Shown: positions 20,517 to 45,100 of the stretch, in pieces | Layout of the letters: each line of letters begins with the position of its first letter | Numbering within the stretch: position 1 is the first letter of the stretch | DNA from: Eledone cirrhosa | Lineage: Eukaryota | Assembly: GCA_964016885.1 (NCBI GenBank) | Contig: OZ024740.1 | Location: 403,434,001 to 403,498,000, forward strand | DNA length: 64,000 nucleotides | Direction of reading: 5' to 3' | The notes under the pieces: generated by a model | Told to the model about the DNA's origin: nothing | The model's input: the letters and a program-made list of their open reading frames with translations, nothing else | Database searches by the model: none | Translations under genes and position numbers: made by a program

Positions 20517-20603
20517 GTAGGTAGGTAGGTAGGTAGGTATGTAGGTAGGTAGGTAGGTAGGTAGGTAGGTAGGTAGGTAGGTAGGTAGGTAGGTAGGTAG
20601 GTA
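20517..20603 (+). repeat. (TAGG)n microsatellite at the satellite edge (duplicated at ~29995-30081)
   Basis: Direct reading. Confidence 0.97.
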
Positions 20604-20640
20604 GATGGCTAGGAAGGTGGGATTGTAGGTAGCTAAATGG

Positions 20641-23600
20641 GTAGATTAGTAGGCAGGTGGCTAGAGATGTAGGTATGTAGGTAGGTAGGTAGATTAGTAG
20701 GCAGGTGGCTAGAGATGTAGGTAGGCAGGTAGATTAGTAGGCAGGTGGCTAGAGATGTAGGTATGTAGGTAGGCAGGTATGTTAGTAGGCAGGTGGCTAG
20801 ACATGTAGGTAGGCAGGTATGTTAGTAGGCAGGTGGCTAGAGATGTAGGTATGTAGGTAGGCAGGTAGATTAGTAGGCAGGTGGCTAGAGGTGTAGGGAT
20901 GTAGGTAGGTAGGTAGATTAGTAGGCAGGTGGCTAGAGATTTAGGGATGTAGGTAGGTAGGTAGATTAGTAGGCAGGTGGCTAGAGATGTAGGTATGTAG
21001 CTAGATTAGTAGGCAGGTGGCTAGAGATGTAGGTAGGCAGGTATGTTAGTAGGCAGGTGGCTAGAGATGTAGGTATGTAGGTAGGCAGGTAGATTAGTAG
21101 GCAGGTGGCTAGAGATGTAGGTATGTAGGTAGGCAGGTAGATTAGTAGGCAGGTGGCAAGAGATGTAGGTATGTAGGTAGGCAGGTAGATTAGTAGGCAC
21201 GTGGCAAGAGGTGTAGGTAGGCAGGCAGGTATGTTAGTAGACAGGTAGTTAGAGATGTAGATAGGCAGGTAGATTAGTAGACAGGTGGCTAGAGATGTAG
21301 GTATGTAGGTAAGCAGGTAAATTAGTAGGCAGGTGGCTAAAAATGTGTAGGTAGGCAGGTAGATTAGTAGGCAGGTGGCTAGAGATGTAGGTGGGCAGGT
21401 AGATTAGTAGGCAGGTGGCTAAAGATGTAGGTATATAGGTAGATTAGTAGACAGGTGGCTAGAGATGTAGGTAGGCAGGTATGTTAGTAGGCAGGTGGCT
21501 AGAGATGTAGGTATGTAGGTAGGCAGGTAGATTAGTAGACAGGTGGCTAGAGATGTAGGTAGGCAGGTATGTTAGTAGGCAGGTGGATAGAGATGTAGGT
21601 ATGTAGGTAGGCAGGTATGTTAGTGGGCAGGTGGCTAGGTAGGCAGGTAGATTAGTAGACAGGTGACTAGAGATGTAGGTAGGCAAATAGAATAGTAGGC
21701 AGGTGGCTAGAGATGTAGGTATGTAGGTAGGCAGGTATGTTAGTAGGCAGGTGGCTAGAGATGTAGGTAAGTAGGTAGGCAGGTAGAATAGTAGGCAGGT
21801 GGCTATAGATGTAGGTATATAGGTAGGCAGGTAGAATAGTAGGCAGGAGGCTAGAGATGTAGGTATGTAGGTAGGAAGGTAGAATAGTAGGCAGGTGGCT
21901 AGAGATGTAGGTAGGCAGGTAGATTAGAAGGCAGGTGGCTAGAGATGTAGGTAGGCAGGTAGATTAGTAGACAGGTGTCTAGAGATGTAGGTATGTAGGT
22001 AGGTAGAATAGTAGGCAGGTGGGAAGAGATGTAGAAAGGCAGGTAAATTGGTAGGCAGATGGCTAGAGATGTAGGTAGGCAGGTAGATTAGTAGGCAGGT
22101 GGCTAGAGATGTAGGTATGAAGGTAGGCAGGTATGTTAGTAGGCAGGTGGCTAGAGATGTAGATAGGCAGGTAGATTAGTAGACAAGTGGCTAGAGATGT
22201 AGGTATGTAGGTAGGCAGGTAGATTAGTAGGCAGGTGGCTAGAGATGTAGGTATGTAGGTAGGCAGGTAGATTAGTAGGCATGTGGCTAGAGATCTAGGT
22301 ATGTAGGTAGGCAGGTAGATTAGTAGGCAAGTGGCTAGAGATGTAGGTATAGGTAGATTAGTAGGCAGGTGGCTAGAGATGTAGGTATGTAGGTAGGCAG
22401 GTAGATTAGTAGAAAGGTGGCTAGAGATGTAGGTATGTAGGTAGGCAGGTAGATTAGTAGGCAGGTGGCTAGAGATTTAGGTATGTAGGTAGGCAGGTAG
22501 ATTAGTAGGCAGGTGGCTACAGATGTAGGTATGTAGGTAGGCAGGTAGATTAGTAGACAGGTGGCAAGAGATGTAGGTATCTAGGTAGGCAGGTATGTTA
22601 GTAGGCAGGTGGCTAGAGATGTAGGTATGAAGTTAGGCAGGTAGATTAGTAGACAGGTGGCTAGAGATGTAGGTATGTAGGTAGGCAGGTAGAATAGTAG
22701 GCAGGTGGCTAGAGATGTAGGTATGTAGGTAGGCAGGTAGATTAGTAGGCGGGTGGCTAGAGATGTAGGTAGGCAGGTATGTTAGTAGGCAGGTGGCTAG
22801 AGATGTAGGTATGTAGTTAGGCAGGTAGATTAGTAGGCAGGTGGCAAGAGATGTAGGTATGTAGGTAGGCAGGTAGATTAGTAGGCACGTGGCAAGAGGT
22901 GTAGGAAGGCAGGCAGGTATGTTAGTAGGCAGGTAGCTAGAGATGTAGGTAGGCAGGTGGTTAGAGATGTAGATAGGCAGGTAGATTAGTAGACAGGTGG
23001 CTAGAGATGTAGGTATGTAGGTAAGCAGGTAAATTAGTAGGCAGGTGGCTAAAAATGTGTAGGTAGGCAGGTAGATATGTAGGCAGGTGGCTAGAGATGT
23101 AGGTGGGCAGGTAGATTAGTAGGCAAGATGTAGGTATGTAGGTAGGCAGGTAGATTAGTAGGCAGGTGGCTAGAGATGTAGGTAGGCAGGTATGTTAGTA
23201 GACAGGTGGCTAGAGATGTAGGTATGTAGGTAGGTAGATTAGTAGACAGGTGGCTAGAGATATAGGTAGGCAGGTATGTTAGTAGGCAGGTGGATAGAGA
23301 TGTAGGTATGTAGGTAGGCAGGTATGTTAGTGGGCAGGTGGCTAGGTAGGCAGGTAGATTAGTAGACAGGTGGCTAGAGATGTAGGTAGCCAAATAGAAT
23401 AGTAGGCAGGTGGCTAGAGATGTAGGTATGTAGGTAGGCAGGTATGTTAGTAGGCAGGTGGCTAGAGATGTAGGTATGTAGGTAGGCAGGTAGAATAGTA
23501 GGCAGGTGGCTAGAGATGTAGGTATGTAGGCAGGTAGATTAGTAGGCAGGTGGCTAGAGATGTAGGTATGTAGGTAGGAAGGTAGAATAGTAGGCAGGTG

Positions 23601-26600
23601 GCTAGAGATGTAGGTAGGCAGGTAGATTAGTAGACAGGTGGCTAGAGATGTAGGTATGTAGGTAGGCAGGTAGATTAGTAGGCAGGTGGCTAGATATGTA
23701 GGTATGTAGGTAGGCAGGTAGATTAGTAGGCAGGTGGCTAGAGATGTAGGTATGTAGGTAGGAAGGTAGAATAGTAAGCAGGTGGCTAGAGATGTAGGTA
23801 GGCAGGTAGATTAGTAGGCAGGTGGCTAAAGATGTAGGTAGGCAGGTAGATTAGTAGACAGGTGTCTAGAGATGTAGGTATGTAGGTAGGTAGAATAGTA
23901 GGCAGGTGGGAAGAGATGTAGAAAGGCAGGTAAATTAGTAGGCAGGTGGCTAGAGATGTAGGTAGGCAGGTAGATTAGTAGACAAGTGGCTAGAGATGTA
24001 GGTATGTAGGTAGGCAGGTAGATTAGTAGGCAGGTGGCTAGAGATGTAGGTATGTAGGTAGGCAGGTAGATTAGTAGGCAGGTGGCTAGAGATGTAGGTA
24101 TGTAGGTAGGCAGGTAGATTAGTAGGCAGGTGGCTAGAGATGTAGGTATGTAGGTAGGCACGTAGATTAGTAGGCAGGTGGCTAGAGATGTAGGTAGGCA
24201 GGTAGATTAGTAGACAGGTGGCAAGAGATGTAGGTATCTAGGTAGGCAGGTATGTTAGTAGGCAGGTGGCTAGAGATGTTGGTATGAAGTTAGGCAGGTA
24301 GATTAGTAGGCAGGTGGCTAGAGATGTACGTATGTATGTAGGCAGGTAGATTAGTAGGCAGGTAGCTAGAGATGTAGATAGGCAGGTAGATTAGTAGACA
24401 GGTGGCTAGAGATGTAGGTATGTAGGTAGGCAGATAGAATAGTAGGCAGGTGGCTAGAGATGTAGGTATGTAGGTAGGCAGGTATGTTAGTAGGCAGGTG
24501 GCAAGAGATGTAGGTAGGCAGGTAGGCAGGTAGATTAGTAGACAGGTGGCTAGAGATGTAGGTATGTAGGTAGGCAGGTGGATTAGTAGGCAGGTGGCTA
24601 GAGATGTACGTATATATGTAGGCAGGTAGATTAGTAGGCAGGTAGCTAGAGATGTAGATAGGCAGGTAGATTAGTAGACAGGTGGTTAGAGATGTAGGTA
24701 TGTAGGTAGGCAGGTAGAATAGTAGGCAGGTGGCTAGAGATGTAGGAAGGCAGGTAAATTAGTAGGCAGGTGGCTAGAGATGTAGGTAGGCAGGTAGATT
24801 AGTAGGCAGGTGGCTAGAGATGTAGGTATGTAGGTAGGCAGGTATGTTAGTAGGCAGGTGGCTAGACATGTAGGTAGGCAGGTATGTTAGTAGGCAGGTG
24901 GCTAGAGATGTAGGTATGTAGGTAGGCAGGTAGATTAGTAGGCAGGTGGCTAGAGGTGTAGGGATGTAGGTAGGTAGGTAGATTAGTAGGCAGGTGGCTA
25001 GAGATTTAGGGATGTAGGTAGGTAGGTAGATTAGTAGGCAGGTGGCTAGAGATGTAGGTATGTAGCTAGATTAGTAGGCAGGTGGCTAGAGATGTAGGTA
25101 GGCAGGTATGTTAGTAGGCAGGTGGCTAGAGATGTAGGTATGTAGGTAGGCAGGTAGATTAGTAAGCAGGTGGCTAGAGATATTGGTATGTAGGTAGGCA
25201 GGTACATTAGTAGTCAGGTGGCTAGAGATGTAGGTATAGGTAGATTAGTAGGCAGGTGGCTAGAGATGTAGGTATGTAGGTAGGCAGGTAGATTAGTAGA
25301 CAGGTTGCTAGAGATGTAGGTATGTAGGTAGGCAGGTGGCTAGGGATGTAGGTTGGCATGTATATTAGTAGGCAGGTGGCTAGAGATGTAGGTATGTAGG
25401 TCGGCAGGTAGATTAGTAGGCAGGTGGCTAGAGGTGTAGGTATGTAGGTAGGCAGGTATGTTAGTAGGCAGGTGGCTAGAGATGTAGGTATGTAGGTAGG
25501 CAGGTAGATTAGTAGGCAGGTGGCTAGAGATGTAGGTATGTAGGTAGGCAGGTATGTTAGTAGACAGGCGGCTAGAGATGTAGGTATGTAGGTAGGCAGG
25601 TAGATTAGTAGGCAGGTGGCTAGAGATATAGGAAGGCAGGTAAATTAGTAGGCAGGTGGCTCGAGATGTAGGTATGTAGGTAGGCAGGTAGATTAGTAGG
25701 CAGGTGGCTAGAGATGTAGGTATGTAGGTAGGCAGGTATGTTAGTAGACAGGTGGCCAGAGATGTAGGTAGGCAGGTCGATTAGTAGGCAGGTGGCTAGA
25801 GATGTAGGTATAGGTAGATTAGTAGGCAGGTGGCTAGAGATGTAGGTATGTAGGTAGGCAGGTAGATTAGTAGAAAGGTGGCTAGAGATGTAGGTATGTA
25901 GGTAGGCAGGTAGATTAGTAGGCAGGTGGCTAGAGATGTAGGTATGTAGGTAGGCAGGTAGATTAGTAGGCAGGTGGCTACAGATGTAGGTATGTAGGTA
26001 GGCAGGTAGATTAGTAGACAGGTGGCAAGAGATGTAGGTATCTAGGTAGGCAGGTATGTTAGTAGGCAGGTGGCTAGAGATGTAGGTATGAAGTTAGGCA
26101 GGTAGATTAGTAGACAGGTGGCTAGAGATGTAGGTATGTAGGTAGGCAGGTAGAATAGTAGGCAGGTGGCTAGAGATGTAGGTATGTAGGTAGGCAGGTA
26201 GATTAGTAGGCGGGTGGCTAGAGATGTAGGTAGGCAGGTATGTTAGTAGGCAGGTGGCTAGAGATGTAGGTATGTAGGTAGGCAGGTAGATTAGTAGGCA
26301 GGTGGCAAGAGATGTAGGTATGTAGGTAGGCAGGTAGATTAGTAGGCACGTGGCAAGAGGTGTAGGAAGGCAGGCAGGTATGTTAGTAGGCAGGTAGCTA
26401 GAGATGTAGGTAGGCAGGTGGTTAGAGATGTAGATAGGCAGGTAGATTAGTAGACAGGTGGCTAGAGATGTAGGTATGTAGGTAAGCAGGTAAATTAGTA
26501 GGCAGGTGGCTAAAAATGTGTAGGTAGGCAGGTAGATATGTAGGCAGGTGGCTAGAGATGTAGGTGGGCAGGTAGATTAGTAGGCAAGATGTAGGTATGT

Positions 26601-28420
26601 AGGTAGGCAGGTAGATTAGTTGGCAGGTGTCTAGAGATGTAGGTAGGCAGGTATGTTAGTAGACAGGTGGCTAGAGATGTAGGTATGTAGGTAGGTAGAT
26701 TAGTAGACAGGTGGCTAGAGATATAGGTAGGCAGGTACGTTAGTAGGCAGGTGGATAGAGATGTAGGTATGTAGGTAGGCAGGTATGTTAGTGGGCAGGT
26801 GGCTAGGTAGGCAGGTAGATTAGTAGACAGGTGGCTAGAGATGTAGGTAGCCAAATAGAATAGTAGGCAGGTGGCTAGAGATAATGGTATGTAGGTAGGC
26901 AGGTAGAATAGTAGGCAGGTGGCTAGAGATGTAGGTATGTAGGCAGGTAGATTAGTAGGCAGGTGGCTAGAGATGTAGGTATGTAGGTAGGAAGGTAGAA
27001 TAGTAGGCAGGTGGCTAGAGATGTAGGTAGGCAGGTAGATTAGTAGACAGGTGGCTAGAGATGTAGGTATGTAGGTAGGCAGGTAGATTAGTAGGCAGGT
27101 GGCTAGATATGTAGGTATGTAGGTAGGCAGGTAGATTAGTAGGCAGGTGGCTAGAGGTGTAGGTATGTAGGTAGGCAGGTATGTTAGTAGGCAGGTGGCT
27201 AGAGATGTAGGTATGTAGGTAGGCAGGTAGATTAGTAGGCAGGTGGCTAGAGATGTAGGTATGTAGGTAGGCAGGTATGTTAGTAGACAGGCGGCTAGAG
27301 ATGTAGGTATGTAGGTAGGCAGGTAGATTAGTAGGCAGGTGGCTAGAGATATAGGAAGGCAGGTAAATTAGTAGGCAGGTGGCTCGAGATGTAGGTATGT
27401 AGGTAGGCAGGTAGATTAGTAGGCAGGTGGCTAGAGATGTAGGTATGTAGGTAGGCAGGTATGTTAGTAGACAGGTGGCCAGAGATGTAGGTAGGCAGGT
27501 CGATTAGTAGGCAGGTGGCTAGAGATGTAGGTATAGGTAGATTAGTAGGCAGGTGGCTAGAGATGTAGGTATGTAGGTAGGCAGGTAGATTAGTAGAAAG
27601 GTGGCTAGAGATGTAGGTATGTAGGTAGGCAGGTAGATTAGTAGGCAGGTGGCTAGAGATGTAGGTATGTAGGTAGGCAGGTAGATTAGTAGGCAGGTGG
27701 CTACAGATGTAGGTATGTAGGTAGGCAGGTAGATTAGTAGACAGGTGGCAAGAGATGTAGGTATCTAGGTAGGCAGGTATGTTAGTAGGCAGGTGGCTAG
27801 AGATGTAGGTATGAAGTTAGGCAGGTAGATTAGTAGACAGGTGGCTAGAGATGTAGGTATGTAGGTAGGCAGGTAGAATAGTAGGCAGGTGGCTAGAGAT
27901 GTAGGTATGTAGGTAGGCAGGTAGATTAGTAGGCGGGTGGCTAGAGATGTAGGTAGGCAGGTATGTTAGTAGGCAGGTGGCTAGAGATGTAGGTATGTAG
28001 GTAGGCAGGTAGATTAGTAGGCAGGTGGCAAGAGATGTAGGTATGTAGGTAGGCAGGTAGATTAGTAGGCACGTGGCAAGAGGTGTAGGAAGGCAGGCAG
28101 GTATGTTAGTAGGCAGGTAGCTAGAGATGTAGGTAGGCAGGTGGTTAGAGATGTAGATAGGCAGGTAGATTAGTAGACAGGTGGCTAGAGATGTAGGTAT
28201 GTAGGTAAGCAGGTAAATTAGTAGGCAGGTGGCTAAAAATGTGTAGGTAGGCAGGTAGATATGTAGGCAGGTGGCTAGAGATGTAGGTGGGCAGGTAGAT
28301 TAGTAGGCAAGATGTAGGTATGTAGGTAGGCAGGTAGATTAGTTGGCAGGTGTCTAGAGATGTAGGTAGGCAGGTATGTTAGTAGACAGGTGGCTAGAGA
28401 TGTAGGTATGTAGGTAGGTA
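20641..28420. repeat. TAGG-derived 40/48-bp satellite, block 1
   Basis: Monomer [GTAGGTAT]-GTAGGTAG-GCAGGTAG-ATTAGTAG-GCAGGTGG-CTAGAGAT. Confidence 0.98.
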
Positions 28421-29965
28421 AGTTTCTTTTATTTGCCACTAGGGCATCAAAAGTGGGACAAGTACAAAGGGGGGAGTTTACACAAAAAGGCGTCCTCAAT
28501 AAGGAGGAGGCAATAACAAAATATAAAAATAAAATAAGATATAACAAAAAATAAAATTTTTAACAAAATCCTCAATAGAGAGGAGGCGACTTGGGGGGTC
28601 GCACACACCCCCGAAAAAAGTGTGCAACCCTTCTCCTCAGGAGCACAGAGAAGGGGTGCTCCCTTGGTCTTTCATCTTCCTCACCTATAGTCTGATGTAG
28701 AGTGAAGGCCCATTCACACGGACCATTCTCGCCACTTTCACCCATCTTTCATAGAAACGGCTGGGGTGCAGCACCTCTCTCTCCATCCTGATCCTTCTTC
28801 CGAAATGATATCGGAAGAAACGGACCAGTTGTTGGCCAGAGAGAAAGGTGCCTGACCTCAGTCCTTTCAGACGCGTCCACCATACAACCTCTTTCGCCAT
28901 GGCTATTACGCACAGAAACACCGCCTCTGCTTCATCTTTGAAGGGGGGAGGCGGCTTGATCATTACAATAGACTCGGTGGTCAACCGGATCGGTCCCACC
29001 CTTGACAGCAGTTGTTCGACATAGCCCCACAGATCGGCTACGCCCGAGCAGTGTACCAATGCGTGTGCAACGGTTTCCTCGTCGCACACGCATCTGGGAC
29101 AGATCTTTTTGGCGGGGTCCCTACCCGGGCGCCCGTGTCTGTAGAGCCTTTCTCGAACGGGTAAAGCCCCTCGGTAGCACTGCCAGGCCAGGGATTTCTG
29201 GAAGTTGTCCATAGGTCCTGGGCTGAATGTCCTACCGAACAGGCTGGCCAGTTCGTCCTCCTCCATATCTAGGGCTTCTCCGAGGGCGTCGTCGCACCTG
29301 CTGCGTACCAGCCCTCTATAGAATGTTGCGGTGGAGTCTCCACTGATAACCGGATCCGCCTGCCAGAGGGCGGTGAGCGCCTGGGCACACTCAGTGTGCC
29401 AGGCGCCCAGTTTTCTCGGTCTTTGCTTGACCCAGGATTGCAGCTCGGTGAGTGAGACGAGTCTGGGAAAGGTTCGTCTCACAAACGAGGCCCACACCGG
29501 TTGTCCGGTGAGGAATACGTAGAGGTGCCGTAGCCTTAATGCGTGTTTACGCATCATTAGCCACGGCATCCCCAGCCCTCCTTTCGAAGGGTGTTGACAG
29601 CAGATGGATCTCCTCACCATAGGAGCCCGCCTCTTCCAAAGGAATTGGAAGAGCGCGCGCTCCATCTTGGTGAGGGTTTACCTTGGGCAGGGCACTACGG
29701 TCAGGCGGTAGTAGATGACGGACGCTATGTAGGTGTTCGCCACTTCCGCCCGACCTTTCAGGGATAGTTTGCAACTGGCCCACTTCTGGGTCAGTGCAAA
29801 CACCCTGTTCGTAACCTCCACCCAGTTTTTCTCCACCTGGAGGTCCGGTCCGAACCAGACCCCGAGCAACTTCACCGGGCCCTCCGTCCAGCGTCCGACG
29901 ACGCTATCGGGGGGCATCGGCCTGCCCCTCCACGTGCCGAGTTGCAAACCGATCGACTTGTCCCG
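28421..29965 (-). mobile_element. Tx1/L1-type LINE 3' fragment, copy 2 (chimeric duplicate of copy 1)
   Basis: Offset 9478 from copy 1, with the same 5' truncation, premature stop and right flank. The left flank differs, and there are 4 differences in the first ~300 bp. Confidence 0.92.
28685..29947 (-). pseudogene. Tx1-like ORF2 C-terminus with premature stop
   Basis: Translation is identical to copy 1 except ARMARV versus ARMVRV. Confidence 0.9.
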
Positions 29966-30118
29966 AGTAGATAGGTTGGTATATAAGTAGGAGTGTAGGT
30001 AGGTAGGTAGGTAGGTATGTAGGTAGGTAGGTAGGTAGGTAGGTAGGTAGGTAGGTAGGTAGGTAGGTAGGTAGGTAGGTAGATGGCTAGGAAGGTGGGA
30101 TTGTAGGTAGCTAAATGG

Positions 30119-33100
30119 GTAGATTAGTAGGCAGGTGGCTAGAGATGTAGGTATGTAGGTAGGTAGGTAGATTAGTAGGCAGGTGGCTAGAGATGTAGGT
30201 AGGCAGGTAGATTAGTAGGCAGGTGGCTAGAGATGTAGGTATGTAGGTAGGCAGGTATGTTAGTAGGCAGGTGGCTAGACATGTAGGTAGGCAGGTATGT
30301 TAGTAGGCAGGTGGCTAGAGATGTAGGTATGTAGGTAGGCAGGTAGATTAGTAGGCAGGTGGCTAGAGGTGTAGGGATGTAGGTAGGTAGGTAGATTAGT
30401 AGGCAGGTGGCTAGAGATTTAGGGATGTAGGTAGGTAGGTAGATTAGTAGGCAGGTGGCTAGAGATGTAGGTATGTAGCTAGATTAGTAGGCAGGTGGCT
30501 AGAGATGTAGGTAGGCAGGTATGTTAGTAGGCAGGTGGCTAGAGATGTAGGTATGTAGGTAGGCAGGTAGATTAGTAGGCAGGTGGCTAGAGATGTAGGT
30601 ATGTAGGTAGGCAGGTAGATTAGTAGGCAGGTGGCAAGAGATGTAGGTATGTAGGTAGGCAGGTAGATTAGTAGGCACGTGGCAAGAGGTGTAGGTAGGC
30701 AGGCAGGTATGTTAGTAGACAGGTAGTTAGAGATGTAGATAGGCAGGTAGATTAGTAGACAGGTGGCTAGAGATGTAGGTATGTAGGTAAGCAGGTAAAT
30801 TAGTAGGCAGGTGGCTAAAAATGTGTAGGTAGGCAGGTAGATTAGTAGGCAGGTGGCTAGAGATGTAGGTGGGCAGGTAGATTAGTAGGCAGGTGGCTAA
30901 AGATGTAGGTATATAGGTAGATTAGTAGACAGGTGGCTAGAGATGTAGGTAGGCAGGTATGTTAGTAGGCAGGTGGCTAGAGATGTAGGTATGTAGGTAG
31001 GCAGGTAGATTAGTAGACAGGTGGCTAGAGATGTAGGTAGGCAGGTATGTTAGTAGGCAGGTGGATAGAGATGTAGGTAGGCAGGTATGTTAGTGGGCAG
31101 GTGGCTAGGTAGGCAGGTAGATTAGTAGACAGGTGACTAGAGATGTAGGTAGGCAAATAGAATAGTAGGCAGGTGGCTAGAGATGTAGGTATGTAGGTAG
31201 GCAGGTATGTTAGTAGGCAGGTGGCTAGAGATGTAGGTAAGTAGGTAGGCAGGTAGAATAGTAGGCAGGTGGCTATAGATGTAGGTATATAGGTAGGCAG
31301 GTAGAATAGTAGGCAGGAGGCTAGAGATGTAGGTATGTAGGTAGGAAGGTAGAATAGTAGGCAGGTGGCTAGAGATGTAGGTAGGCAGGTAGATTAGAAG
31401 GCAGGTGGCTAGAGATGTAGGTAGGCAGGTAGATTAGTAGACAGGTGTCTAGAGATGTAGGTATGTAGGTAGGTAGAATAGTAGGCAGGTGGGAAGAGAT
31501 GTAGAAAGGCAGGTAAATTGGTAGGCAGATGGCTAGAGATGTAGGTAGGCAGGTAGATTAGTAGGCAGGTGGCTAGAGATGTAGGTATGAAGGTAGGCAG
31601 GTATGTTAGTAGGCAGGTGGCTAGAGATGTAGATAGGCAGGTAGATTAGTAGACAAGTGGCTAGAGATGTAGGTATGTAGGTAGGCAGGTAGATTAGTAG
31701 GCAGGTGGCTAGAGATGTAGGTATGTAGGTAGGCAGGTAGATTAGTAGGCATGTGGCTAGAGATCTAGGTATGTAGGTAGGCAGGTAGATTAGTAGGCAA
31801 GTGGCTAGAGATGTAGGTATAGGTAGATTAGTAGGCAGGTGGCTAGAGATGTAGGTATGTAGGTAGGCAGGAAGATTAGTAGAAAGGTGGCTAGAGATGT
31901 AGGTATGTAGGTAGGCAGGTAGATTAGTAGGCAGGTGGCTAGAGATTTAGGTATGTAGGTAGGCAGGTAGATTAGTAGGCAGGTGGCTACAGATGTAGGT
32001 ATGTAGGTAGGCAGGTAGATTAGTAGACAGGTGGCAAGAGATGTAGGTATCTAGGTAGGCAGGTATGTTAGTAGGCAGGTGGCTAGAGATGTAGGTATGA
32101 AGTTAGGCAGGTAGATTAGTAGACAGGTGGCTAGAGATGTAGGTATGTAGGTAGGCAGGTAGAATAGTAGGCAGGTGGCTAGAGATGTAGGTATGTAGGT
32201 AGGCAGGTAGATTAGTAGGCGGGTGGCTAGAGATGTAGGTAGGCAGGTATGTTAGTAGGCAGGTGGCTAGAGATGTAGGTATGTAGTTAGGCAGGTAGAT
32301 TAGTAGGCAGGTGGCAAGAGATGTAGGTATGTAGGTAGGCAGGTAGATTAGTAGGCACGTGGCAAGAGGTGTAGGAAGGCAGGCAGGTATGTTAGTAGGC
32401 AGGTAGCTAGAGATGTAGGTAGGCAGGTGGTTAGAGATGTAGATAGGCAGGTAGATTAGTAGACAGGTGGCTAGAGATGTAGGTATGTAGGTAAGCAGGT
32501 AAATTAGTAGGCAGGTGGCTAAAAATGTGTAGGTAGGCAGGTAGATATGTAGGCAGGTGGCTAGAGATGTAGGTGGGCAGGTAGATTAGTAGGCAAGATG
32601 TAGGTATGTAGGTAGGCAGGTAGATTAGTAGGCAGGTGGCTAGAGATGTAGGTAGGCAGGTATGTTAGTAGACAGGTGGCTAGAGATGTAGGTATGTAGG
32701 TAGGTAGATTAGTAGACAGGTGGCTAGAGATATAGGTAGGCAGGTATGTTAGTAGGCAGGTGGATAGAGATGTAGGTATGTAGGTAGGCAGGTATGTTAG
32801 TGGGCAGGTGGCTAGGTAGGCAGGTAGATTAGTAGACAGGTGGCTAGAGATGTAGGTAGCCAAATAGAATAGTAGGCAGGTGGCTAGAGATGTAGGTATG
32901 TAGGTAGGCAGGTATGTTAGTAGGCAGGTGGCTAGAGATGTAGGTATGTAGGTAGGCAGGTAGAATAGTAGGCAGGTGGCTAGAGATGTAGGTATGTAGG
33001 CAGGTAGATTAGTAGGCAGGTGGCTAGAGATGTAGGTATGTAGGTAGGAAGGTAGAATAGTAGGCAGGTGGCTAGAGATGTAGGTAGGCAGGTAGATTAG

Positions 33101-36100
33101 TAGACAGGTGGCTAGAGATGTAGGTATGTAGGTAGGCAGGTAGATTAGTAGGCAGGTGGCTAGATATGTAGGTATGTAGGTAGGCAGGTAGATTAGTAGG
33201 CAGGTGGCTAGAGATGTAGGTATGTAGGTAGGAAGGTAGAATAGTAAGCAGGTGGCTAGAGATGTAGGTAGGCAGGTAGATTAGTAGGCAGGTGGCTAAA
33301 GATGTAGGTAGGCAGGTAGATTAGTAGACAGGTGTCTAGAGATGTAGGTATGTAGGTAGGTAGAATAGTAGGCAGGTGGGAAGAGATGTAGAAAGGCAGG
33401 TAAATTAGTAGGCAGGTGGCTAGAGATGTAGGTAGGCAGGTAGATTAGTAGACAAGTGGCTAGAGATGTAGGTATGTAGGTAGGCAGGTAGATTAGTAGG
33501 CAGGTGGCTAGAGATGTAGGTATGTAGGTAGGCAGGTAGATTAGTAGGCAGGTGGCTAGAGATGTAGGTATGTAGGTAGGCAGGTAGATTAGTAGGCAGG
33601 TGGCTAGAGATGTAGGTATGTAGGTAGGCACGTAGATTAGTAGGCAGGTGGCTAGAGATGTAGGTAGGCAGGTAGATTAGTAGACAGGTGGCAAGAGATG
33701 TAGGTATCTAGGTAGGCAGGTATGTTAGTAGGCAGGTGGCTAGAGATGTTGGTATGAAGTTAGGCAGGTAGATTAGTAGGCAGGTGGCTAGAGATGTACG
33801 TATGTATGTAGGCAGGTAGATTAGTAGGCAGGTAGCTAGAGATGTAGGTATGTAGGTAGGCAGGTAGATTAGTAGGCAGGTGGCAAGAGATGTAGGTATG
33901 TAGGTAGGCAGGTAGATTAGTAGGCACGTGGCAAGAGGTGTAGGTAGGCAGGCAGGTATGTTAGTAGACAGGTAGTTAGAGATGTAGATAGGCAGGTAGA
34001 TTAGTAGACAGGTGGCTAGAGATGTAGGTATGTAGGTAAGCAGGTAAATTAGTAGGCAGGTGGCTAAAAATGTGTAGGTAGGCAGGTAGATTAGTAGGCA
34101 GGTGGCTAGAGATGTAGGTGGGCAGGTAGATTAGTAGGCAGGTGGCTAAAGATGTAGGTATATAGGTAGATTAGTAGACAGGTGGCTAGAGATGTAGGTA
34201 GGCAGGTATGTTAGTAGGCAGGTGGCTAGAGATGTAGGTATGTAGGTAGGCAGGTAGATTAGTAGACAGGTGGCTAGAGATGTAGGTAGGCAGGTATGTT
34301 AGTAGGCAGGTGGATAGAGATGTAGGTAGGCAGGTATGTTAGTGGGCAGGTGGCTAGGTAGGCAGGTAGATTAGTAGACAGGTGACTAGAGATGTAGGTA
34401 GGCAAATAGAATAGTAGGCAGGTGGCTAGAGATGTAGGTATGTAGGTAGGCAGGTATGTTAGTAGGCAGGTGGCTAGAGATGTAGGTAAGTAGGTAGGCA
34501 GGTAGAATAGTAGGCAGGTGGCTATAGATGTAGGTATATAGGTAGGCAGGTAGAATAGTAGGCAGGAGGCTAGAGATGTAGGTATGTAGGTAGGAAGGTA
34601 GAATAGTAGGCAGGTGGCTAGAGATGTAGGTAGGCAGGTAGATTAGAAGGCAGGTGGCTAGAGATGTAGGTAGGCAGGTAGATTAGTAGACAGGTGTCTA
34701 GAGATGTAGGTATGTAGGTAGGTAGAATAGTAGGCAGGTGGGAAGAGATGTAGAAAGGCAGGTAAATTGGTAGGCAGATGGCTAGAGATGTAGGTAGGCA
34801 GGTAGATTAGTAGGCAGGTGGCTAGAGATGTAGGTATGAAGGTAGGCAGGTATGTTAGTAGGCAGGTGGCTAGAGATGTAGATAGGCAGGTAGATTAGTA
34901 GACAAGTGGCTAGAGATGTAGGTATGTAGGTAGGCAGGTAGATTAGTAGGCAGGTGGCTAGAGATGTAGGTATGTAGGTAGGCAGGTAGATTAGTAGGCA
35001 TGTGGCTAGAGATCTAGGTATGTAGGTAGGCAGGTAGATTAGTAGGCAAGTGGCTAGAGATGTAGGTATAGGTAGATTAGTAGGCAGGTGGCTAGAGATG
35101 TAGGTATGTAGGTAGGCAGGTAGATTAGTAGAAAGGTGGCTAGAGATGTAGGTATGTAGGTAGGCAGGTAGATTAGTAGGCAGGTGGCTAGAGATTTAGG
35201 TATGTAGGTAGGCAGGTAGATTAGTAGGCAGGTGGCTACAGATGTAGGTATGTAGGTAGGCAGGTAGATTAGTAGACAGGTGGCAAGAGATGTAGGTATC
35301 TAGGTAGGCAGGTATGTTAGTAGGCAGGTGGCTAGAGATGTAGGTATGAAGTTAGGCAGGTAGATTAGTAGACAGGTGGCTAGAGATGTAGGTATGTAGG
35401 TAGGCAGGTAGAATAGTAGGCAGGTGGCTAGAGATGTAGGTATGTAGGTAGGCAGGTAGATTAGTAGGCGGGTGGCTAGAGATGTAGGTAGGCAGGTATG
35501 TTAGTAGGCAGGTGGCTAGAGATGTAGGTATGTAGTTAGGCAGGTAGATTAGTAGGCAGGTGGCAAGAGATGTAGGTATGTAGGTAGGCAGGTAGATTAG
35601 TAGGCACGTGGCAAGAGGTGTAGGAAGGCAGGCAGGTATGTTAGTAGGCAGGTAGCTAGAGATGTAGGTAGGCAGGTGGTTAGAGATGTAGATAGGCAGG
35701 TAGATTAGTAGACAGGTGGCTAGAGATGTAGGTATGTAGGTAAGCAGGTAAATTAGTAGGCAGGTGGCTAAAAATGTGTAGGTAGGCAGGTAGATATGTA
35801 GGCAGGTGGCTAGAGATGTAGGTGGGCAGGTAGATTAGTAGGCAAGATGTAGGTATGTAGGTAGGCAGGTAGATTAGTAGGCAGGTGGCTAGAGATGTAG
35901 GTAGGCAGGTATGTTAGTAGACAGGTGGCTAGAGATGTAGGTATGTAGGTAGGTAGATTAGTAGACAGGTGGCTAGAGATATAGGTAGGCAGGTATGTTA
36001 GTAGGCAGGTGGATAGAGATGTAGGTATGTAGGTAGGCAGGTATGTTAGTGGGCAGGTGGCTAGGTAGGCAGGTAGATTAGTAGACAGGTGGCTAGAGAT

Positions 36101-39100
36101 GTAGGTAGCCAAATAGAATAGTAGGCAGGTGGCTAGAGATGTAGGTATGTAGGTAGGCAGGTATGTTAGTAGGCAGGTGGCTAGAGATGTAGGTATGTAG
36201 GTAGGCAGGTAGAATAGTAGGCAGGTGGCTAGAGATGTAGGTATGTAGGCAGGTAGATTAGTAGGCAGGTGGCTAGAGATGTAGGTATGTAGGTAGGAAG
36301 GTAGAATAGTAGGCAGGTGGCTAGAGATGTAGGTAGGCAGGTAGATTAGTAGACAGGTGGCTAGAGATGTAGGTATGTAGGTAGGCAGGTAGATTAGTAG
36401 GCAGGTGGCTAGATATGTAGGTATGTAGGTAGGCAGGTAGATTAGTAGGCAGGTGGCTAGAGATGTAGGTATGTAGGTAGGAAGGTAGAATAGTAAGCAG
36501 GTGGCTAGAGATGTAGGTAGGCAGGTAGATTAGTAGGCAGGTGGCTAAAGATGTAGGTAGGCAGGTAGATTAGTAGACAGGTGTCTAGAGATGTAGGTAT
36601 GTAGGTAGGTAGAATAGTAGGCAGGTGGGAAGAGATGTAGAAAGGCAGGTAAATTAGTAGGCAGGTGGCTAGAGATGTAGGTAGGCAGGTAGATTAGTAG
36701 ACAAGTGGCTAGAGATGTAGGTATGTAGGTAGGCAGGTAGATTAGTAGGCAGGTGGCTAGAGATGTAGGTATGTAGGTAGGCAGGTAGATTAGTAGGCAG
36801 GTGGCTAGAGATGTAGGTATGTAGGTAGGCAGGTAGATTAGTAGGCAGGTGGCTAGAGATGTAGGTATGTAGGTAGGCACGTAGATTAGTAGGCAGGTGG
36901 CTAGAGATGTAGGTAGGCAGGTAGATTAGTAGACAGGTGGCAAGAGATGTAGGTATCTAGGTAGGCAGGTATGTTAGTAGGCAGGTGGCTAGAGATGTTG
37001 GTATGAAGTTAGGCAGGTAGATTAGTAGGCAGGTGGCTAGAGATGTACGTATGTATGTAGGCAGGTAGATTAGTAGGCAGGTAGCTAGAGATGTAGATAG
37101 GCAGGTAGATTAGTAGACAGGTGGCTAGAGATGTAGGTATGTAGGTAGGCAGATAGAATAGTAGGCAGGTGGCTAGAGATGTAGGTATGTAGGTAGGCAG
37201 GTATGTTAGTAGGCAGGTGGCAAGAGATGTAGGTAGGCAGGTAGGCAGGTAGATTAGTAGACAGGTGGCTAGAGATGTAGGTATGTAGGTAGGCAGGTGG
37301 ATTAGTAGGCAGGTGGCTAGAGATGTACGTATATATGTAGGCAGGTAGATTAGTAGGCAGGTAGCTAGAGATGTAGATAGGCAGGTAGATTAGTAGACAG
37401 GTGGTTAGAGATGTAGGTATGTAGGTAGGCAGGTAGAATAGTAGGCAGGTGGCTAGAGATGTAGGAAGGCAGGTAAATTAGTAGGCAGGTGGCTAGAGAT
37501 GTAGGTAGGCAGGTAGATTAGTAGGCAGGTGGCTAGAGATGTAGGTATGTAGGTAGGCAGGTATGTTAGTAGGCAGGTGGCTAGACATGTAGGTAGGCAG
37601 GTATGTTAGTAGGCAGGTGGCTAGAGATGTAGGTATGTAGGTAGGCAGGTAGATTAGTAGGCAGGTGGCTAGAGGTGTAGGGATGTAGGTAGGTAGGTAG
37701 ATTAGTAGGCAGGTGGCTAGAGATTTAGGGATGTAGGTAGGTAGGTAGATTAGTAGGCAGGTGGCTAGAGATGTAGGTATGTAGCTAGATTAGTAGGCAG
37801 GTGGCTAGAGATGTAGGTAGGCAGGTATGTTAGTAGGCAGGTGGCTAGAGATGTAGGTATGTAGGTAGGCAGGTAGATTAGTAAGCAGGTGGCTAGAGAT
37901 ATTGGTATGTAGGTAGGCAGGTACATTAGTAGTCAGGTGGCTAGAGATGTAGGTATAGGTAGATTAGTAGGCAGGTGGCTAGAGATGTAGGTATGTAGGT
38001 AGGCAGGTAGATTAGTAGACAGGTTGCTAGAGATGTAGGTATGTAGGTAGGCAGGTGGCTAGGGATGTAGGTTGGCATGTATATTAGTAGGCAGGTGGCT
38101 AGAGATGTAGGTATGTAGGTCGGCAGGTAGATTAGTAGGCAGGTGGCTAGAGGTGTAGGTATGTAGGTAGGCAGGTATGTTAGTAGGCAGGTGGCTAGAG
38201 ATGTAGGTATGTAGGTAGGCAGGTAGATTAGTAGGCAGGTGGCTAGAGATGTAGGTATGTAGGTAGGCAGGTATGTTAGTAGACAGGCGGCTAGAGATGT
38301 AGGTATGTAGGTAGGCAGGTAGATTAGTAGGCAGGTGGCTAGAGATATAGGAAGGCAGGTAAATTAGTAGGCAGGTGGCTCGAGATGTAGGTATGTAGGT
38401 AGGCAGGTAGATTAGTAGGCAGGTGGCTAGAGATGTAGGTATGTAGGTAGGCAGGTATGTTAGTAGACAGGTGGCCAGAGATGTAGGTAGGCAGGTCGAT
38501 TAGTAGGCAGGTGGCTAGAGATGTAGGTATAGGTAGATTAGTAGGCAGGTGGCTAGAGATGTAGGTATGTAGGTAGGCAGGTAGATTAGTAGAAAGGTGG
38601 CTAGAGATGTAGGTATGTAGGTAGGCAGGTAGATTAGTAGGCAGGTGGCTAGAGATGTAGGTATGTAGGTAGGCAGGTAGATTAGTAGGCAGGTGGCTAC
38701 AGATGTAGGTATGTAGGTAGGCAGGTAGATTAGTAGACAGGTGGCAAGAGATGTAGGTATCTAGGTAGGCAGGTATGTTAGTAGGCAGGTGGCTAGAGAT
38801 GTAGGTATGAAGTTAGGCAGGTAGATTAGTAGACAGGTGGCTAGAGATGTAGGTATGTAGGTAGGCAGGTAGAATAGTAGGCAGGTGGCTAGAGATGTAG
38901 GTATGTAGGTAGGCAGGTAGATTAGTAGGCGGGTGGCTAGAGATGTAGGTAGGCAGGTATGTTAGTAGGCAGGTGGCTAGAGATGTAGGTATGTAGGTAG
39001 GCAGGTAGATTAGTAGGCAGGTGGCAAGAGATGTAGGTATGTAGGTAGGCAGGTAGATTAGTAGGCACGTGGCAAGAGGTGTAGGAAGGCAGGCAGGTAT

Positions 39101-42100
39101 GTTAGTAGGCAGGTAGCTAGAGATGTAGGTAGGCAGGTGGTTAGAGATGTAGATAGGCAGGTAGATTAGTAGACAGGTGGCTAGAGATGTAGGTATGTAG
39201 GTAAGCAGGTAAATTAGTAGGCAGGTGGCTAAAAATGTGTAGGTAGGCAGGTAGATATGTAGGCAGGTGGCTAGAGATGTAGGTGGGCAGGTAGATTAGT
39301 AGGCAAGATGTAGGTATGTAGGTAGGCAGGTAGATTAGTTGGCAGGTGTCTAGAGATGTAGGTAGGCAGGTATGTTAGTAGACAGGTGGCTAGAGATGTA
39401 GGTATGTAGGTAGGTAGATTAGTAGACAGGTGGCTAGAGATATAGGTAGGCAGGTACGTTAGTAGGCAGGTGGATAGAGATGTAGGTATGTAGGTAGGCA
39501 GGTATGTTAGTGGGCAGGTGGCTAGGTAGGCAGGTAGATTAGTAGACAGGTGGCTAGAGATGTAGGTAGCCAAATAGAATAGTAGGCAGGTGGCTAGAGA
39601 TAATGGTATGTAGGTAGGCAGGTAGAATAGTAGGCAGGTGGCTAGAGATGTAGGTATGTAGGCAGGTAGATTAGTAGGCAGGTGGCTAGAGATGTAGGTA
39701 TGTAGGTAGGAAGGTAGAATAGTAGGCAGGTGGCTAGAGATGTAGGTAGGCAGGTAGATTAGTAGACAGGTGGCTAGAGATGTAGGTATGTAGGTAGGCA
39801 GGTAGATTAGTAGGCAGGTGGCTAGATATGTAGGTATGTAGGTAGGCAGGTAGATTAGTAGGCAGGTGGCTAGAGGTGTAGGTATGTAGGTAGGCAGGTA
39901 TGTTAGTAGGCAGGTGGCTAGAGATGTAGGTATGTAGGTAGGCAGGTAGATTAGTAGGCAGGTGGCTAGAGATGTAGGTATGTAGGTAGGCAGGTATGTT
40001 AGTAGACAGGCGGCTAGAGATGTAGGTATGTAGGTAGGCAGGTAGATTAGTAGGCAGGTGGCTAGAGATATAGGAAGGCAGGTAAATTAGTAGGCAGGTG
40101 GCTCGAGATGTAGGTATGTAGGTAGGCAGGTAGATTAGTAGGCAGGTGGCTAGAGATGTAGGTATGTAGGTAGGCAGGTATGTTAGTAGACAGGTGGCCA
40201 GAGATGTAGGTAGGCAGGTCGATTAGTAGGCAGTTGGCTAGAGATGTAGGTATAGGTAGATTAGTAGGCAGGTGGCTAGAGATGTAGGTATGTAGGTAGG
40301 CAGGTAGATTAGTAGAAAGGTGGCTAGAGATGTAGGTATGTAGGTAGGCAGGTAGATTAGTAGGCAGGTGGCTAGAGATGTAGGTATGTAGGTAGGCAGG
40401 TAGATTAGTAGGCAGGTGGCTACAGATGTAGGTATGTAGGTAGGCAGGTAGATTAGTAGACAGGTGGCAAGAGATGTAGGTATCTAGGTAGGCAGGTATG
40501 TTAGTAGGCAGGTGGCTAGAGATGTAGGTATGAAGTTAGGCAGGTAGATTAGTAGACAGGTGGCTAGAGATGTAGGTATGTAGGTAGGCAGGTAGAATAG
40601 TAGGCAGGTGGCTAGAGATGTAGGTATGTAGGTAGGCAGGTAGATTAGTAGGCGGGTGGCTAGAGATGTAGGTAGGCAGGTATGTTAGTAGGCAGGTGGC
40701 TAGAGATGTAGGTATGTAGGTAGGCAGGTAGATTAGTAGGCAGGTGGCAAGAGATGTAGGTATGTAGGTAGGCAGGTAGATTAGTAGGCACGTGGCAAGA
40801 GGTGTAGGAAGGCAGGCAGGTATGTTAGTAGGCAGGTAGCTAGAGATGTAGGTAGGCAGGTGGTTAGAGATGTAGATAGGCAGGTAGATTAGTAGACAGG
40901 TGGCTAGAGATGTAGGTATGTAGGTAAGCAGGTAAATTAGTAGGCAGGTGGCTAAAAATGTGTAGGTAGGCAGGTAGATATGTAGGCAGGTGGCTAGAGA
41001 TGTAGGTGGGCAGGTAGATTAGTAGGCAAGATGTAGGTATGTAGGTAGGCAGGTAGATTAGTTGGCAGGTGTCTAGAGATGTAGGTAGGCAGGTATGTTA
41101 GTAGACAGGTGGCTAGAGATGTAGGTATGTAGGTAGGTAGATTAGTAGACAGGTGGCTAGAGATATAGGTAGGCAGGTACGTTAGTAGGCAGGTGGATAG
41201 AGATGTAGGTATGTAGGTAGGCAGGTATGTTAGTGGGCAGGTGGCTAGGTAGGCAGGTAGATTAGTAGACAGGTGGCTAGAGATGTAGGTAGCCAAATAG
41301 AATAGTAGGCAGGTGGCTAGAGATAATGGTATGTAGGTAGGCAGGTAGAATAGTAGGCAGGTGGCTAGAGATGTAGGTATGTAGGCAGGTAGATTAGTAG
41401 GCAGGTGGCTAGAGATGTAGGTATGTAGGTAGGAAGGTAGAATAGTAGGCAGGTGGCTAAAGATGTAGGTAGGCAGGTAGATTAGTAGAGAGGTGTCTAG
41501 AGATGTAGGTATGTAGGTAGGTAGAATAGTAGGCAGGTGGGAAGAGATGTAGAAAGGCAGGTAAATTAGTAGGCAGGTGGCTAGAGATGTAGGTAGGCAG
41601 GTAGATTAGTAGACAAGTGGCTAGAGATGTAGGTATGTAGGTAGGCAGGTAGATTAGTAGGCAGGTGGCTAGAGATGTAGGTATGTATGTAGGCAGGTAG
41701 ATTAGTAGGCAGGTGGCTCGAGATGTAGGTATGTAGGTAGGCAGGTAGATTAGTAGGCAGGTGGCTAGAGATGTAGGTATGTAGGTAGGCACGTAGATTA
41801 GTAGGCAGGTGGCTAGAGATGTAGGTAGGCAGGTAGATTAGTAGACAGGTGGCAAGAGATGTAGGTATCTAGGTAGGCAGGTATGTTAGTAGGCAGGTGG
41901 CTAGAGATGTTGGTATGAAGTTAGGCAGGTAGATTAGTAGACAGGTGGCTAGAGATGTAGGTATGTAGGTAGGCAGATAGAATAGTAGGCAGGTGGCTAG
42001 AGATGTAGGTATGTAGGTAGGCAGGTATGTTAGTAGGCAGGTGGCTAGAGATGTAGGTAGGCAGGTAGGCAGGTAGATTAGTAGACAGGTGGCTAGAGAT

Positions 42101-45100
42101 GTAGGTATGTAGGTAGGCAGGTGGATTAGTAGGCAGGTGGCTAGAGATGTAGGTATGTAGGTAGGCAGTTAGATTAGTAGGCAGGTGGCTAGAGATGTAC
42201 GTATGTATGTAGGCAGGTAGATTAGTAGGCAGGTAGCTAGAGATGTAGATAGGCAGGTAGATTAGTAGACAGGTGGTTAGAGATGTAGGTATGTAGGTAG
42301 GCAGGTAGAATAGTAGGCAGGTGGCTAGAGATGTAGGAAGGCAGGTAAATTAGTAGGCAGGTGGCTAGAGATGTGGGTAGGCAGGTAGATTAGTAGGCAG
42401 GTGGCTAGAGATGTAGGTATGTAGGTAGGCAGGTATGTTAGTAGGCAGGTGGCTAGAGATGTAGATAGGCAGGTAGATTAGTAGGCAGGTGGCTAGAGAT
42501 GTAGGTAGGCAGGTAGATTAGTAGGCAGGTGGCTAGAGATGTAGGTATGAAGGTAGGCAGGTATGTTAGTAGGCAGGTGGCTAGAGATGTAGGTAGGCAG
42601 GTAGATTAGTAGGCAGGTGGCTAGAGATGTAGGTATGTAGGTAGGCAGGTATGTTAGTAGGCAGGTGGCTAGAGATGTAGATAGGCAGGTAGATTAGTAG
42701 ACAGGTGGCTAGAGATGTAGGTATGTAGGTAGGCAAGTAGATTAGTAGTCAGGTGGCTAGAGATGTAGGTATAGGTAGATTAGTAGGCAGGTGGCTAGAG
42801 ATGTAGGTATGTAGGTAGGCAGGTAGATTAGTAGACAGGTGGCTAGAGATGTAGGTATGTAGGTAGGCAGGTGGCTAGGGATGTAGGTTGGCAGGTATAT
42901 TAGTAGGCAGGTGGCTAGAGATGTAGGTGTGTAGGTAGGCAGGTAGATTAGTAGGCAGGTGGCTAGAGATGTAGGTATGTAGGTAGGCAGGTAGATTAGT
43001 AGGCAGGTGGCTCGAGATGTAGGTATGTAGGTTGGCAGGTAGATTAGTAGGCAGGTGACTAGAGATGTAGGTATGTAGGTAGGCAGGTAGATTAGTAGGC
43101 AGGTGGCTAGAGATGTAGGTATGCAGGTAGATTAGTAGGCAGGTGGCTAGAGATGTAGGTAGGCAGGTAGATTAGTAGGCAGGTGGCTAGAGATGTAGGA
43201 AGGCAGGTAAATTAGTAGGCAGGTGGCTCGAGATGTAGGTATGTAGGTTGGCAGGTAGATTAGTAGGCAGGTGACTAGAGATGTAGGTATGTAGGTAGGC
43301 AGGTAGATTAGTAGGCAGGTGGCTAGAGATGTAGGTAGGCAGGTAGATTAGTAGACAGGTGGCTAGAGATGTAGGTATGTAGGTAGGCAGGTGGCTAGAG
43401 ATGTAGGTATGTTTGTAGGCAGGTAGATTAGTAGGCAGGTGGCTAGAGATGTAGGTATGTAGGTAGGCAGGCATGTTAGTAGGCAGGTGGCCAGAGATGT
43501 TGGTACGTAGGTACGCAGGTAGATTAGTAGGCAGGTGGCTAGAGATGTAGGTAGGCAGGTAGATTAGTAGACAGGTGGCTAGAGATGTAGGTATCTAGGT
43601 AGGCAGGTATGTTAGTAGGCAGGTGGCCAGAGATGTAGGTAGGCAGGTAGATTAGTAGGCAGGTGGCTAGGTATGTAGGTAGCAGGTATGTTAGTAGGCA
43701 GGTGGCTAGAGATGTAGGTATGTAGGTACGCAGGTAGATTAGTAGGCAGGTGGCTAGAGATGTAGGTAGGCAGGTAGATTAGTAGACAGGCGGCTAGAGA
43801 TGTAGGTATGTAGGTAGGCAGTTATATTAGTAGGCAGGTGGCTAGAGATGTACATATATAGGTAGGCAGGTATGTTAGTAGGCAGGTGGCTAGAGATGTA
43901 GGTAGGCAGGTAGATTAGTAGGCAGGTGGCTAGGGATGTAGGTTGGCAGGTATATTAGTAGGCAGGTGGCTAGAGATGTAGGAAGGCAGGTAAATTAGTA
44001 GGCAGGTGGCTAGTGATGTAGGTATGTAGGTAGGCAGGTAGATTAGTAGGCAGGTGGCTAGAGATGTAGGTATGTAGGTAGATTAGTAGACAGGTGGCTA
44101 AAGATGTAGGTATGTAGGTTGGCAGGTAGATTAGTAGGCAGGTGGCTAGAGATGTAGGTATGTAGGTAGGTAGGTAGATTAGTAGGCAGGTGGCTAGAGA
44201 TGTAGGAAGGCAGGTAAATTAGTAGGCAGGTGGCTAGAGATGTAGGAAGGCAGGTAAATTAGTAGGCAGGTGGCTAGAGATGTAGGTATGTAGGTAGTCA
44301 GGTAGATTAGTAGGCAGGTGGCTAGAGATGTAGGTATGTAGGTAGGCAGCTAGATTAGTAGGCAGGTGGCTAGAGATGTAGGTATGTAGATAGGCAGGTA
44401 GATTAGTAGGCAGGTGGCTAGAGATGTAGGTATGTATGTAGTCAGGTAGATTAGTAGGCAGGTGGCTAGTGATGTAGGTATGTAGGTAGGCAGGTATGTT
44501 AGTAGACAGGTGGCTAGAGATGTAGGTATGTAGATAGGCAGGTAGATTAGTAGGCAGGTGGCTAGAGATGTAGGTATGTAGGTAGGCAGTTGGCTAGAGA
44601 TGTAGGTATAGGTAGATTAGTAGGCAGGTGCCTAGAGATGTAGGTATTTAGGTAGGCAGGTAGATTAGTAGTCAGGTGGCTAGAGATGTAGGTATAGGTA
44701 GATTAGTAGGCAGGTGGCTCGAGATGTAGGAAGGCAGGTAGAATATTAGGCAGGTGGCTAGAGATGTAGGTATGTAGGTAGATTAGTAGACAGGTGGCTC
44801 TAGATGTAGGTAGGCAGGTAGATTAGTAGGCAGGTGGCTCGAGATGTAGGAAGGCAGGTAGAATAGTAGGCAGGTGGCTAGAGATGTAGGTATAGGTAGA
44901 TTAGTAGGCAGGTGGCTCGAGATGTAGGTAGGCAGGTAGATTAGTAGGCAGGTGGCTAGAGATGTAGGTATGTAGGTAGGCACGTATGTTAGTAGGCAGG
45001 TGGCTAGTGATGTAGGTAGGCAAGTAGATTAGTAGGCAGGTGGCTAGAGATGTATGTAGATTAGTAGACAGTTGGCTAGAGATGTAGGTATGTAGGTAGG

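Follow-up and report, generated by a model that had tools for sequence, protein, structure and literature searches.

We analysed a window of 64,000 nucleotides from Eledone cirrhosa (C1:403,434,001-403,498,000 in an assembly of 3.0 Gb; coordinates without a prefix are window positions), in which an AGGT-rich minisatellite built of 40/48-bp compound units extends from about 20,490 to 60,180 and is accompanied by three copies, E1, E2 and E3, of one family of long interspersed nuclear elements (LINEs). Each of the three is on the minus strand. E1 and E3 bound the two ends of the array, and the array itself is broken by an element once only, at 28421-29965, by E2, whose origin is the subject of this study. 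No N bases were found in the window. The order of blocks, flank-E1-S1-E2-S1'-S2, was confirmed, and the features are as follows.

18935..18942, plus strand: left copy of the 8-bp target-site duplication (TSD) of E1; the same 8 bases stand at 20488-20495
18943..20487, minus strand: E1, a 5'-truncated LINE of the L1 group (Tx1-like), 1,545 bp, with its 3' end at 18943, a T-type terminus and zf-RVT
20488..28420, plus strand: S1, made up of the right TSD copy, an (AGGT)n run and the compound minisatellite (40/48 bp), and containing an internal repeat of 1,723 bp
28411..28421, plus strand: junction of satellite ending in TAGGTA with an A-type 3' terminus of the element, no TSD
28421..28722, minus strand: 3'-terminal stretch in which E2 departs from E1, probably brought by a new insertion
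28723..29194, minus strand: interval that must hold the changeover between the new copy and E1, no informative site occurring before 29195
29195..29965, minus strand: E1-derived part of E2, with private alleles, stop codon and truncation point as in E1
29966..41139, plus strand: S1', the second version of S1, which has lost 8 bp, gained a 3,249-bp tandem repeat and taken on two substitutions (31872, 40234)
41134..41142, plus strand: empty, uninterrupted counterpart of the site broken at 28420, differing by one mismatch from TAGATA^GAT, the family target
41140..60180, plus strand: S2, the remaining array, with element-free repeats of 1.3-5.7 kb
60303..61755, minus strand: E3, an older truncated copy of the same family, about 94% identical to E1, at the far end of the array and outside the duplication

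The segment composed of E1 and S1 (18943-28420, 9478 bp) occurs a second time from 28421 onwards. At an offset of 9478, positions 19245-21601 are matched exactly by 28723-31079, and 21601-28420 correspond to 34320-41139 except for one substitution. The initial annotation had described a 9478-bp tandem duplication of element plus S1; the duplication and its offset hold, but the second block measures 12,719 bp, as it contains an extra 3,249-bp tandem repeat (30586-33847 and 33835-37096) and lacks 8 bp. The 8-bp deletion is present in both copies of the 3,249-bp repeat, indicating that the repeat arose after the deletion. Position 33834 was rejected as a substitution, being the junction of that repeat. 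S1 and S1' differ by 1 substitution over a path of 7.9 kb, and outside the 3'-terminal 302 bp of E2 only 2 substitutions (31872, 40234) were found in the other ~12.4 kb. Four derived satellite changes all seem to be located in the second block, and they are too few to argue for error-prone copying. The satellite cut at 28420 runs on past 41139, as had been proposed: the next 320 bp are an exact continuation of the internal upstream copy (26698-27017), the same as that after the internal twin site 26697, and 41139 is therefore the true empty site.

The LINE family and its target

Full-length copies of the family are about 5.7 kb long and carry open reading frame (ORF) 1 upstream of ORF2, which encodes an APE endonuclease (Exo_endo_phos), a reverse transcriptase (RVT_1) and zf-RVT. 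The best solved relative of ORF2 was L1 ORF2p (E 6e-44), with R2 at 1e-18; the domain order and the 5' truncation with TSDs (16-17 bp at other loci) place the family in the L1 group. The match of ORF1 to zf-CCHC was weak (E 0.051, below the cut-off), and look-alike clusters show zf-CCHC at 0.92. The closest named relative of the element protein is from Argonauta hians (62% identity), which points to an octopod as the likely host. The architecture fits the label Tx1, which is used here as a putative assignment.

Counted as exact 36-mers, young 3' termini of the family number more than 1,000 in the assembly (353 A-type and 690 T-type, ~1,043 together). We tallied the five bases preceding the element in the first 30 listed copies on C1 of each terminus type (60 in total) and found AGATA in 44, ATATA in 12 and other sequences in 4. 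One repeat type thus stands in more than 20% of flanks, the level taken to mark target-specific families in the available part of PMC4494074. Genome-wide, the family specialises in (GATA)n microsatellites, also uses (TA)n-like sites and has some tolerance. Copies preceded by GGTA gave 23 matches, 11 of them of the young type, or ~1% of the ~1,043 (the probe lengths differ slightly), and pure (AGGT)n lies directly before family copies at two other independent sites. If the RNA of the element ends in read-through target repeats, G:U pairing would account for the use of AGGT; note that the wobble pairing was illustrated by RNA-RNA energies alone, which are not evidence for G:U use.

Some further variation was seen within the family. 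Between 232 and 334 positions from the 3' end, 11 linked sites divide the young copies into two subfamilies of roughly equal size; A- and T-type termini seem to be present in both, so that the terminal base may not mark lineage. At C4:76.77-76.78 Mb (L063), a full-length copy lies within a 69-bp TA/GATA-rich minisatellite, a further instance of the family entering a compound array, and no duplication of the element was seen in 10 kb.

Origin of the hybrid copy E2

E2 shares with E1 the 5' truncation point, the right flank and four alleles that were absent from 54 other copies scored. One of these alleles is a premature TAA stop (20200-20202 in E1 and 29678-29680 in E2; 0/54 other copies), and a probe for the allele pair 29195+29219 matched E1 and E2 alone in the assembly. 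The common truncation point, nonsense codon and flank noted in the initial annotation are thereby borne out by direct comparison as well as by the other copies. E1 has a TSD of 8 bp and E3 one of 7 bp (60296-60302 and 61756-61762), and E2 has none; because E1 carries a TSD, it was regarded as the original insertion.

On the other hand, the alignment of E1 with E2 gave four differences (28421, 28589, 28600 and 28722), all within the 3'-terminal 302 bp, in agreement with the earlier statement that the differences lie in the terminal ~300 bp. At 28421, E2 ends in the A-type terminus of the family. At 28600, E2 has the family base C, which was present in 72 of 72 family copies having a base there, and thus lacks the private 19122 allele (T) of E1. 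A match of 28600 to the third copy had been pointed out previously; E3 does match, but C is the family majority and gives no pointer to E3, which was rejected as donor owing to 12 differences in 301 bp. Three of the five inter-block substitutions fall in the first 302 bp (P 1.3e-4, with the boundary chosen after the fact), in the first 774 bp (P 0.002) and in the whole element of 1,545 bp (P 0.015). The 774-bp bound is defined by the first E1-private allele (29195), which makes it the fairest of the three.

The break itself lies at a site resembling the family target. Position 28420 is among 11 of 7,820 scored positions within one mismatch of TAGATA^GAT, there being 0 perfect sites; 10 of these 11 are of the AGGTA type, compared with 419 AGGTA ends in S1 (2.4%). 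The proposal that the breakpoint is exactly where the element has its 3' end, at a target-like site, was therefore sustained, with one mismatch to the consensus and a place in the top 11 of 7,820. The clustering and the site also bear on a plain microhomology event, in which the end of S1 joined the left flank of E1 at AGGTA (18930-18934), followed by an 8-bp deletion and three point changes. The 5-bp match AGGTA does exist 8 bp to the left of E1, as does a flanking GT repeat, and an 8-bp slip did happen elsewhere in the array. That explanation is hardly credible given that it has to place 3 substitutions in 302 bp when the background is 2 per 12.4 kb (P 2e-5 to 8e-4), to recreate by chance, through the deletion, the common family terminus, and to let the break fall by chance at one of the best target-like sites.

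It is directly observed that E2 has hybrid alleles and no TSD, that its family-type terminus abuts the satellite without a gap, that 41139 is an empty site and that the family has a target preference; these observations suggest that E2 is likely a chimera whose 3' end came from a separate insertion event. We consider it probable that a new insertion of this (GATA)n-targeting LINE inside the minisatellite was resolved onto E1, giving E2 and the tandem duplication together. The existence of family copies behind GGTA and (AGGT)n, and of a second locus with the same hybrid pattern (C1:194.75 Mb, see below), counts in favour of this reading. The plus strand would have been nicked after 28420, priming complementary DNA (cDNA) synthesis by target-primed reverse transcription; after 302-774 nt, the cDNA would have invaded and paired by homology with E1, 9.5 kb away either on the same chromatid or on its sister, and synthesis would have continued through the E1 body and the 7.9 kb of satellite in S1 to the cut site. 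By an alternative route with the same product, an insertion that had only just been completed would immediately have undergone crossover with E1 on a chromatid without the insertion; the sequence does not distinguish the two routes. In the second block, the loss of 8 bp and later the 3,249-bp repeat would have followed.

The age of the incoming copy was assessed from the satellite. If that copy had aged in place until it acquired two private changes, 41-105 differences between S1 and S1' would be expected (lower bounds 5-13), while 1 was observed, indicating that the copy was new when the duplication formed and, therefore, that its two private changes came along with it or arose in copying. 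This makes it unlikely that long-resident copies recombined by unequal crossover, that is, that a TSD-flanked insertion resident for some time at 28420 underwent exchange with E1, the second block being derived from a haplotype that lacked the insertion or lost it later, which would additionally require a seamless loss, as 41139 shows neither element nor TSD scar. Two private changes in the 3' part of E2 are nevertheless within the range of resident copies (3 of 23 A-type copies have at least 2 in the same 301 bp), and at another hybrid, at C1:194.75 Mb (see below), a resident neighbour has an identical 3' part.

Several results weigh against a new insertion resolved onto E1. The site is off-consensus, AGGTA preceding the element in 0 of the 60 family flanks. 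The chief weakness is that no donor copy for the 3' part of E2 was found in the assembly. Probed together with adjacent bases, the 28589 allele gave a single match, E2 itself. The 28722 allele was found in 15 copies of mixed subfamilies with ~80-99% identity and was absent from all 72 copies that had been selected independently of it, and so reads as a recurrent mutation. The changes at 28589 and 28722 must come from an unsampled donor, from copying errors or from later mutation, the last of which alone has a P of 0.001-0.08. The junction at 28420/28421 was not seen in public reads, which comprised short contigs from other samples, and for the hybrid at C1:194.75 Mb, the resident neighbour could be the donor and ordinary unequal exchange explains the pattern equally well. 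Of the earlier claim of a new insertion from another source element, the separate 3' origin thus remains likely, in view of the terminus, the clustering and the target-like break, although the source is not identifiable; likewise, the differences between E1 and E2 are confined to the 3' end as anticipated, but no copy carries all the E2 variants. The copy at C2:303.7 Mb (L002), which matches E2 at 3 of 4 sites, was rejected as a proven source since it lacks the 28589 allele; its candidacy was also weakened by a search that favoured copies with E2 alleles, by the recurrence of 28722 in unrelated subfamilies and by an ORF that shows no endonuclease domain.

Public reads covering 28393-29232 were available from four runs as short contigs only, with no listed piece spanning 28420/28421. 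Three of the four runs represent one sample with 66-67% of words and other majority alleles (e.g. at 28560), and this sample is therefore probably not the assembled animal; at 28589, the family base made up more than 99.9% of the depth in these runs. The lack of read confirmation leaves room for an assembly artefact, in which the animal was heterozygous for an insertion at 28420 and the contig switched haplotype inside the element. The product would appear identical, and the two blocks do differ by allele-like indels. We regard such an artefact as quite unlikely, as the window has no N gap and the same hybrid pattern occurs at the second locus with a 996-bp period. If the assembly was built from long reads, these would span a 1.5-kb element, which would also count against an artefact.

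Other loci and the growth of the array

Other loci were surveyed for duplications at the element's 3' end, as suggested in the initial annotation. For 20 truncated copies, drawn from 42 with a visible 5' junction, a second copy of the 5' junction was found within 10 kb on each side in 0 of 20 (upper 95% bound 14%). Among 13 clusters of neighbouring copies, there was 1 clear hybrid duplication, 1 passive case with both flanks and 2 unclear cases, and the rest look like serial insertions. In the clear hybrid (C1:194,754,495-194,757,472), two copies share truncation and flank with a period of 996 bp; the differences of the second copy from the first number 5, all of them within its 3' 342 bp. Three copies are stacked there (C1:194,754,495-194,760,930; L159, L141), and the 3' 342 bp of the middle, hybrid copy match the third copy and the family majority. 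The non-element DNA duplicated at this locus amounts to 16 bp only.

At C4:196,536,000-196,559,000 (L024-L026, L157, L158, L161, L162), three near-identical older copies and both their flanks are duplicated inside a minisatellite at offsets of 15.4 and 4.2 kb. This is passive amplification of an element by an array, the reverse of the case in the window. It also lends some plausibility to a different history for E2, in which an earlier, larger duplication including E1 was followed by an insertion at 28420 that annealed downstream and deleted the DNA between, so that the LINE shrank the array; in tumours, moreover, L1-linked deletions (66) outnumber duplications (14) among 152 L1-bridged rearrangements, according to the available part of bioRxiv 10.1101/2024.08.27.596794. 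Such a history is very unlikely, because it requires two events, the first without trace, and a breakpoint in unique DNA left of E1.

Other arrangements were encountered in the survey. At C28:34,177,000-34,188,300 (L155, L156, L160), the 5' end of a full-length copy and 16 bp of its flank recur 1.5 kb off, joined to a short 3' fragment from a different copy, which may reflect another template jump or retrotransposition of a read-through RNA. At C14:33,539,000-33,542,500 (L015, L163), two truncated copies 968 bp apart have 333 exact bases in common (3' flank and 3' end) and different 5' ends. A same-strand family member or older relative lies within 1.5 kb of the 3' end at 37 of 111 family loci, and these neighbours supply the partners needed for hybrid formation. 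It is doubtful, in our judgement, that the family routinely resolves its insertions onto neighbours stacked up by its own targeting and so acts as a recurring germline source of hybrids and kilobase-scale tandem duplications and drives repeat-array growth in this genome to a measurable extent, with (AGGT)n as a second choice through G:U pairing.

The most far-reaching proposal in the initial annotation, a feed-forward system in which the LINE amplifies its own target array, was contradicted by the genome-wide results. The target of the family is (GATA)n genome-wide, and the satellite is confined to one locus: all 92 of 92 matches to a 48-bp satellite probe lay inside the window, and its 25-bp core was not found in the retrieved loci other than those overlapping the window. 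The array unit is also not the specific target of the family, given 0 perfect sites in 7,820 positions, a single locus and only ~11 of ~1,043 copies behind GGTA. Neither were element-linked gains of the array recurrent: one event was seen, and no element was found at the junctions of the other large repeats of the array (1.3-5.7 kb; offsets 1,308, 1,481, 1,585, 1,723, 3,249, 5,590 and 5,710 bp), in addition to the 0 of 20 duplicated copies. The duplication event added ~8 kb to an array of 40 kb, the other expansions being element-free, and a self-amplifying system is not shown. The event is an isolated accident, and the array grows mostly by its own unequal exchanges.

Outside the array, the window holds a different LINE at 6508-9951 on the minus strand, with an open frame of 1,147 amino acids encoding endonuclease and reverse transcriptase followed by a PHD finger. 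An inverted partial copy of this LINE lies beside it at 4504-5774 on the plus strand (91% identity, 4510-5774 versus 7389-6125). A 500-bp unit is repeated in 2.5 copies with 99% identity at 9916-11160, and an AT-rich minisatellite with 39 copies of a 31-bp unit occupies 16905-18111.

Comparison with known systems

The closest known case is the tandem duplication mediated by L1. Tandem duplications bridged by L1 are described in tumours (PMC7058536), and those of 1-10 kb in an L1 context are treated as large TSDs (bioRxiv 10.1101/2024.12.14.628481), in the available parts of these papers; the source of the rearrangement counts given above also describes pairing of cDNA with nearby homologous DNA. 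As in the window, the L1 cases from tumours and L1-induced cells have the element's 3' end at an endonuclease-type site, a direct duplication and no ordinary TSD. As described there, the far end joins a break with little homology; here, the partner is a resident copy of the family, joined across hundreds of bases. Furthermore, the present case comes from an invertebrate reference assembly, is likely inherited and involves a sequence-specific element.

A chimeric L1 accompanied by an intrachromosomal duplication was reportedly obtained by Gilbert et al. in 2005 with an engineered L1 in cultured human cells. There, too, the new cDNA is said to pair with a resident copy, resulting in a hybrid and in duplication or deletion of the DNA between; in contrast to that system, the event described here occurred naturally and duplicated minisatellite DNA. 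If our reading is true, the locus shows, at base resolution and in nature, a rearrangement that has been described chiefly in human tumours and cultured cells. Stacking elements would make hybrid duplications countable genome-wide and would give a rate outside mammals.

With respect to target choice, Tx1 families specific for microsatellites are known, namely Kibi for (TC)n, Koshi for (TTC)n and the crocodilian Tx1 for (TTCC)n/(TTTC)n (PMC4494074; PMC4640811, each as far as available). Like the present family, they are L1-group LINEs with an APE-type endonuclease that insert into short tandem repeats, with TSDs and tandem stacking, while the target here is (GATA)n. A (GATA)n-specific family of the Tx1 type was not found in the literature searched, which was mostly open-access and did not include Repbase. 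In a repeat annotation of octopus, 13 L1-Tx1 families are given as recently active, their targets being unnamed in the part available (PMC13282606).

A true feed-forward case is R2, which drives copy-number expansion of ribosomal DNA (rDNA) in Drosophila (PMC10266012, available in part). In both systems, the cut of a site-specific retrotransposon leads to homology-based gain of a tandem array. For R2, the target is the array unit itself, and the process is regulated and recurrent and benefits the host; here, by comparison, a single-locus minisatellite with no perfect site in the scored block gained from the one event seen. The locus would accordingly be a one-off case of a known type of rearrangement, and not a self-feeding system of transposon and satellite.

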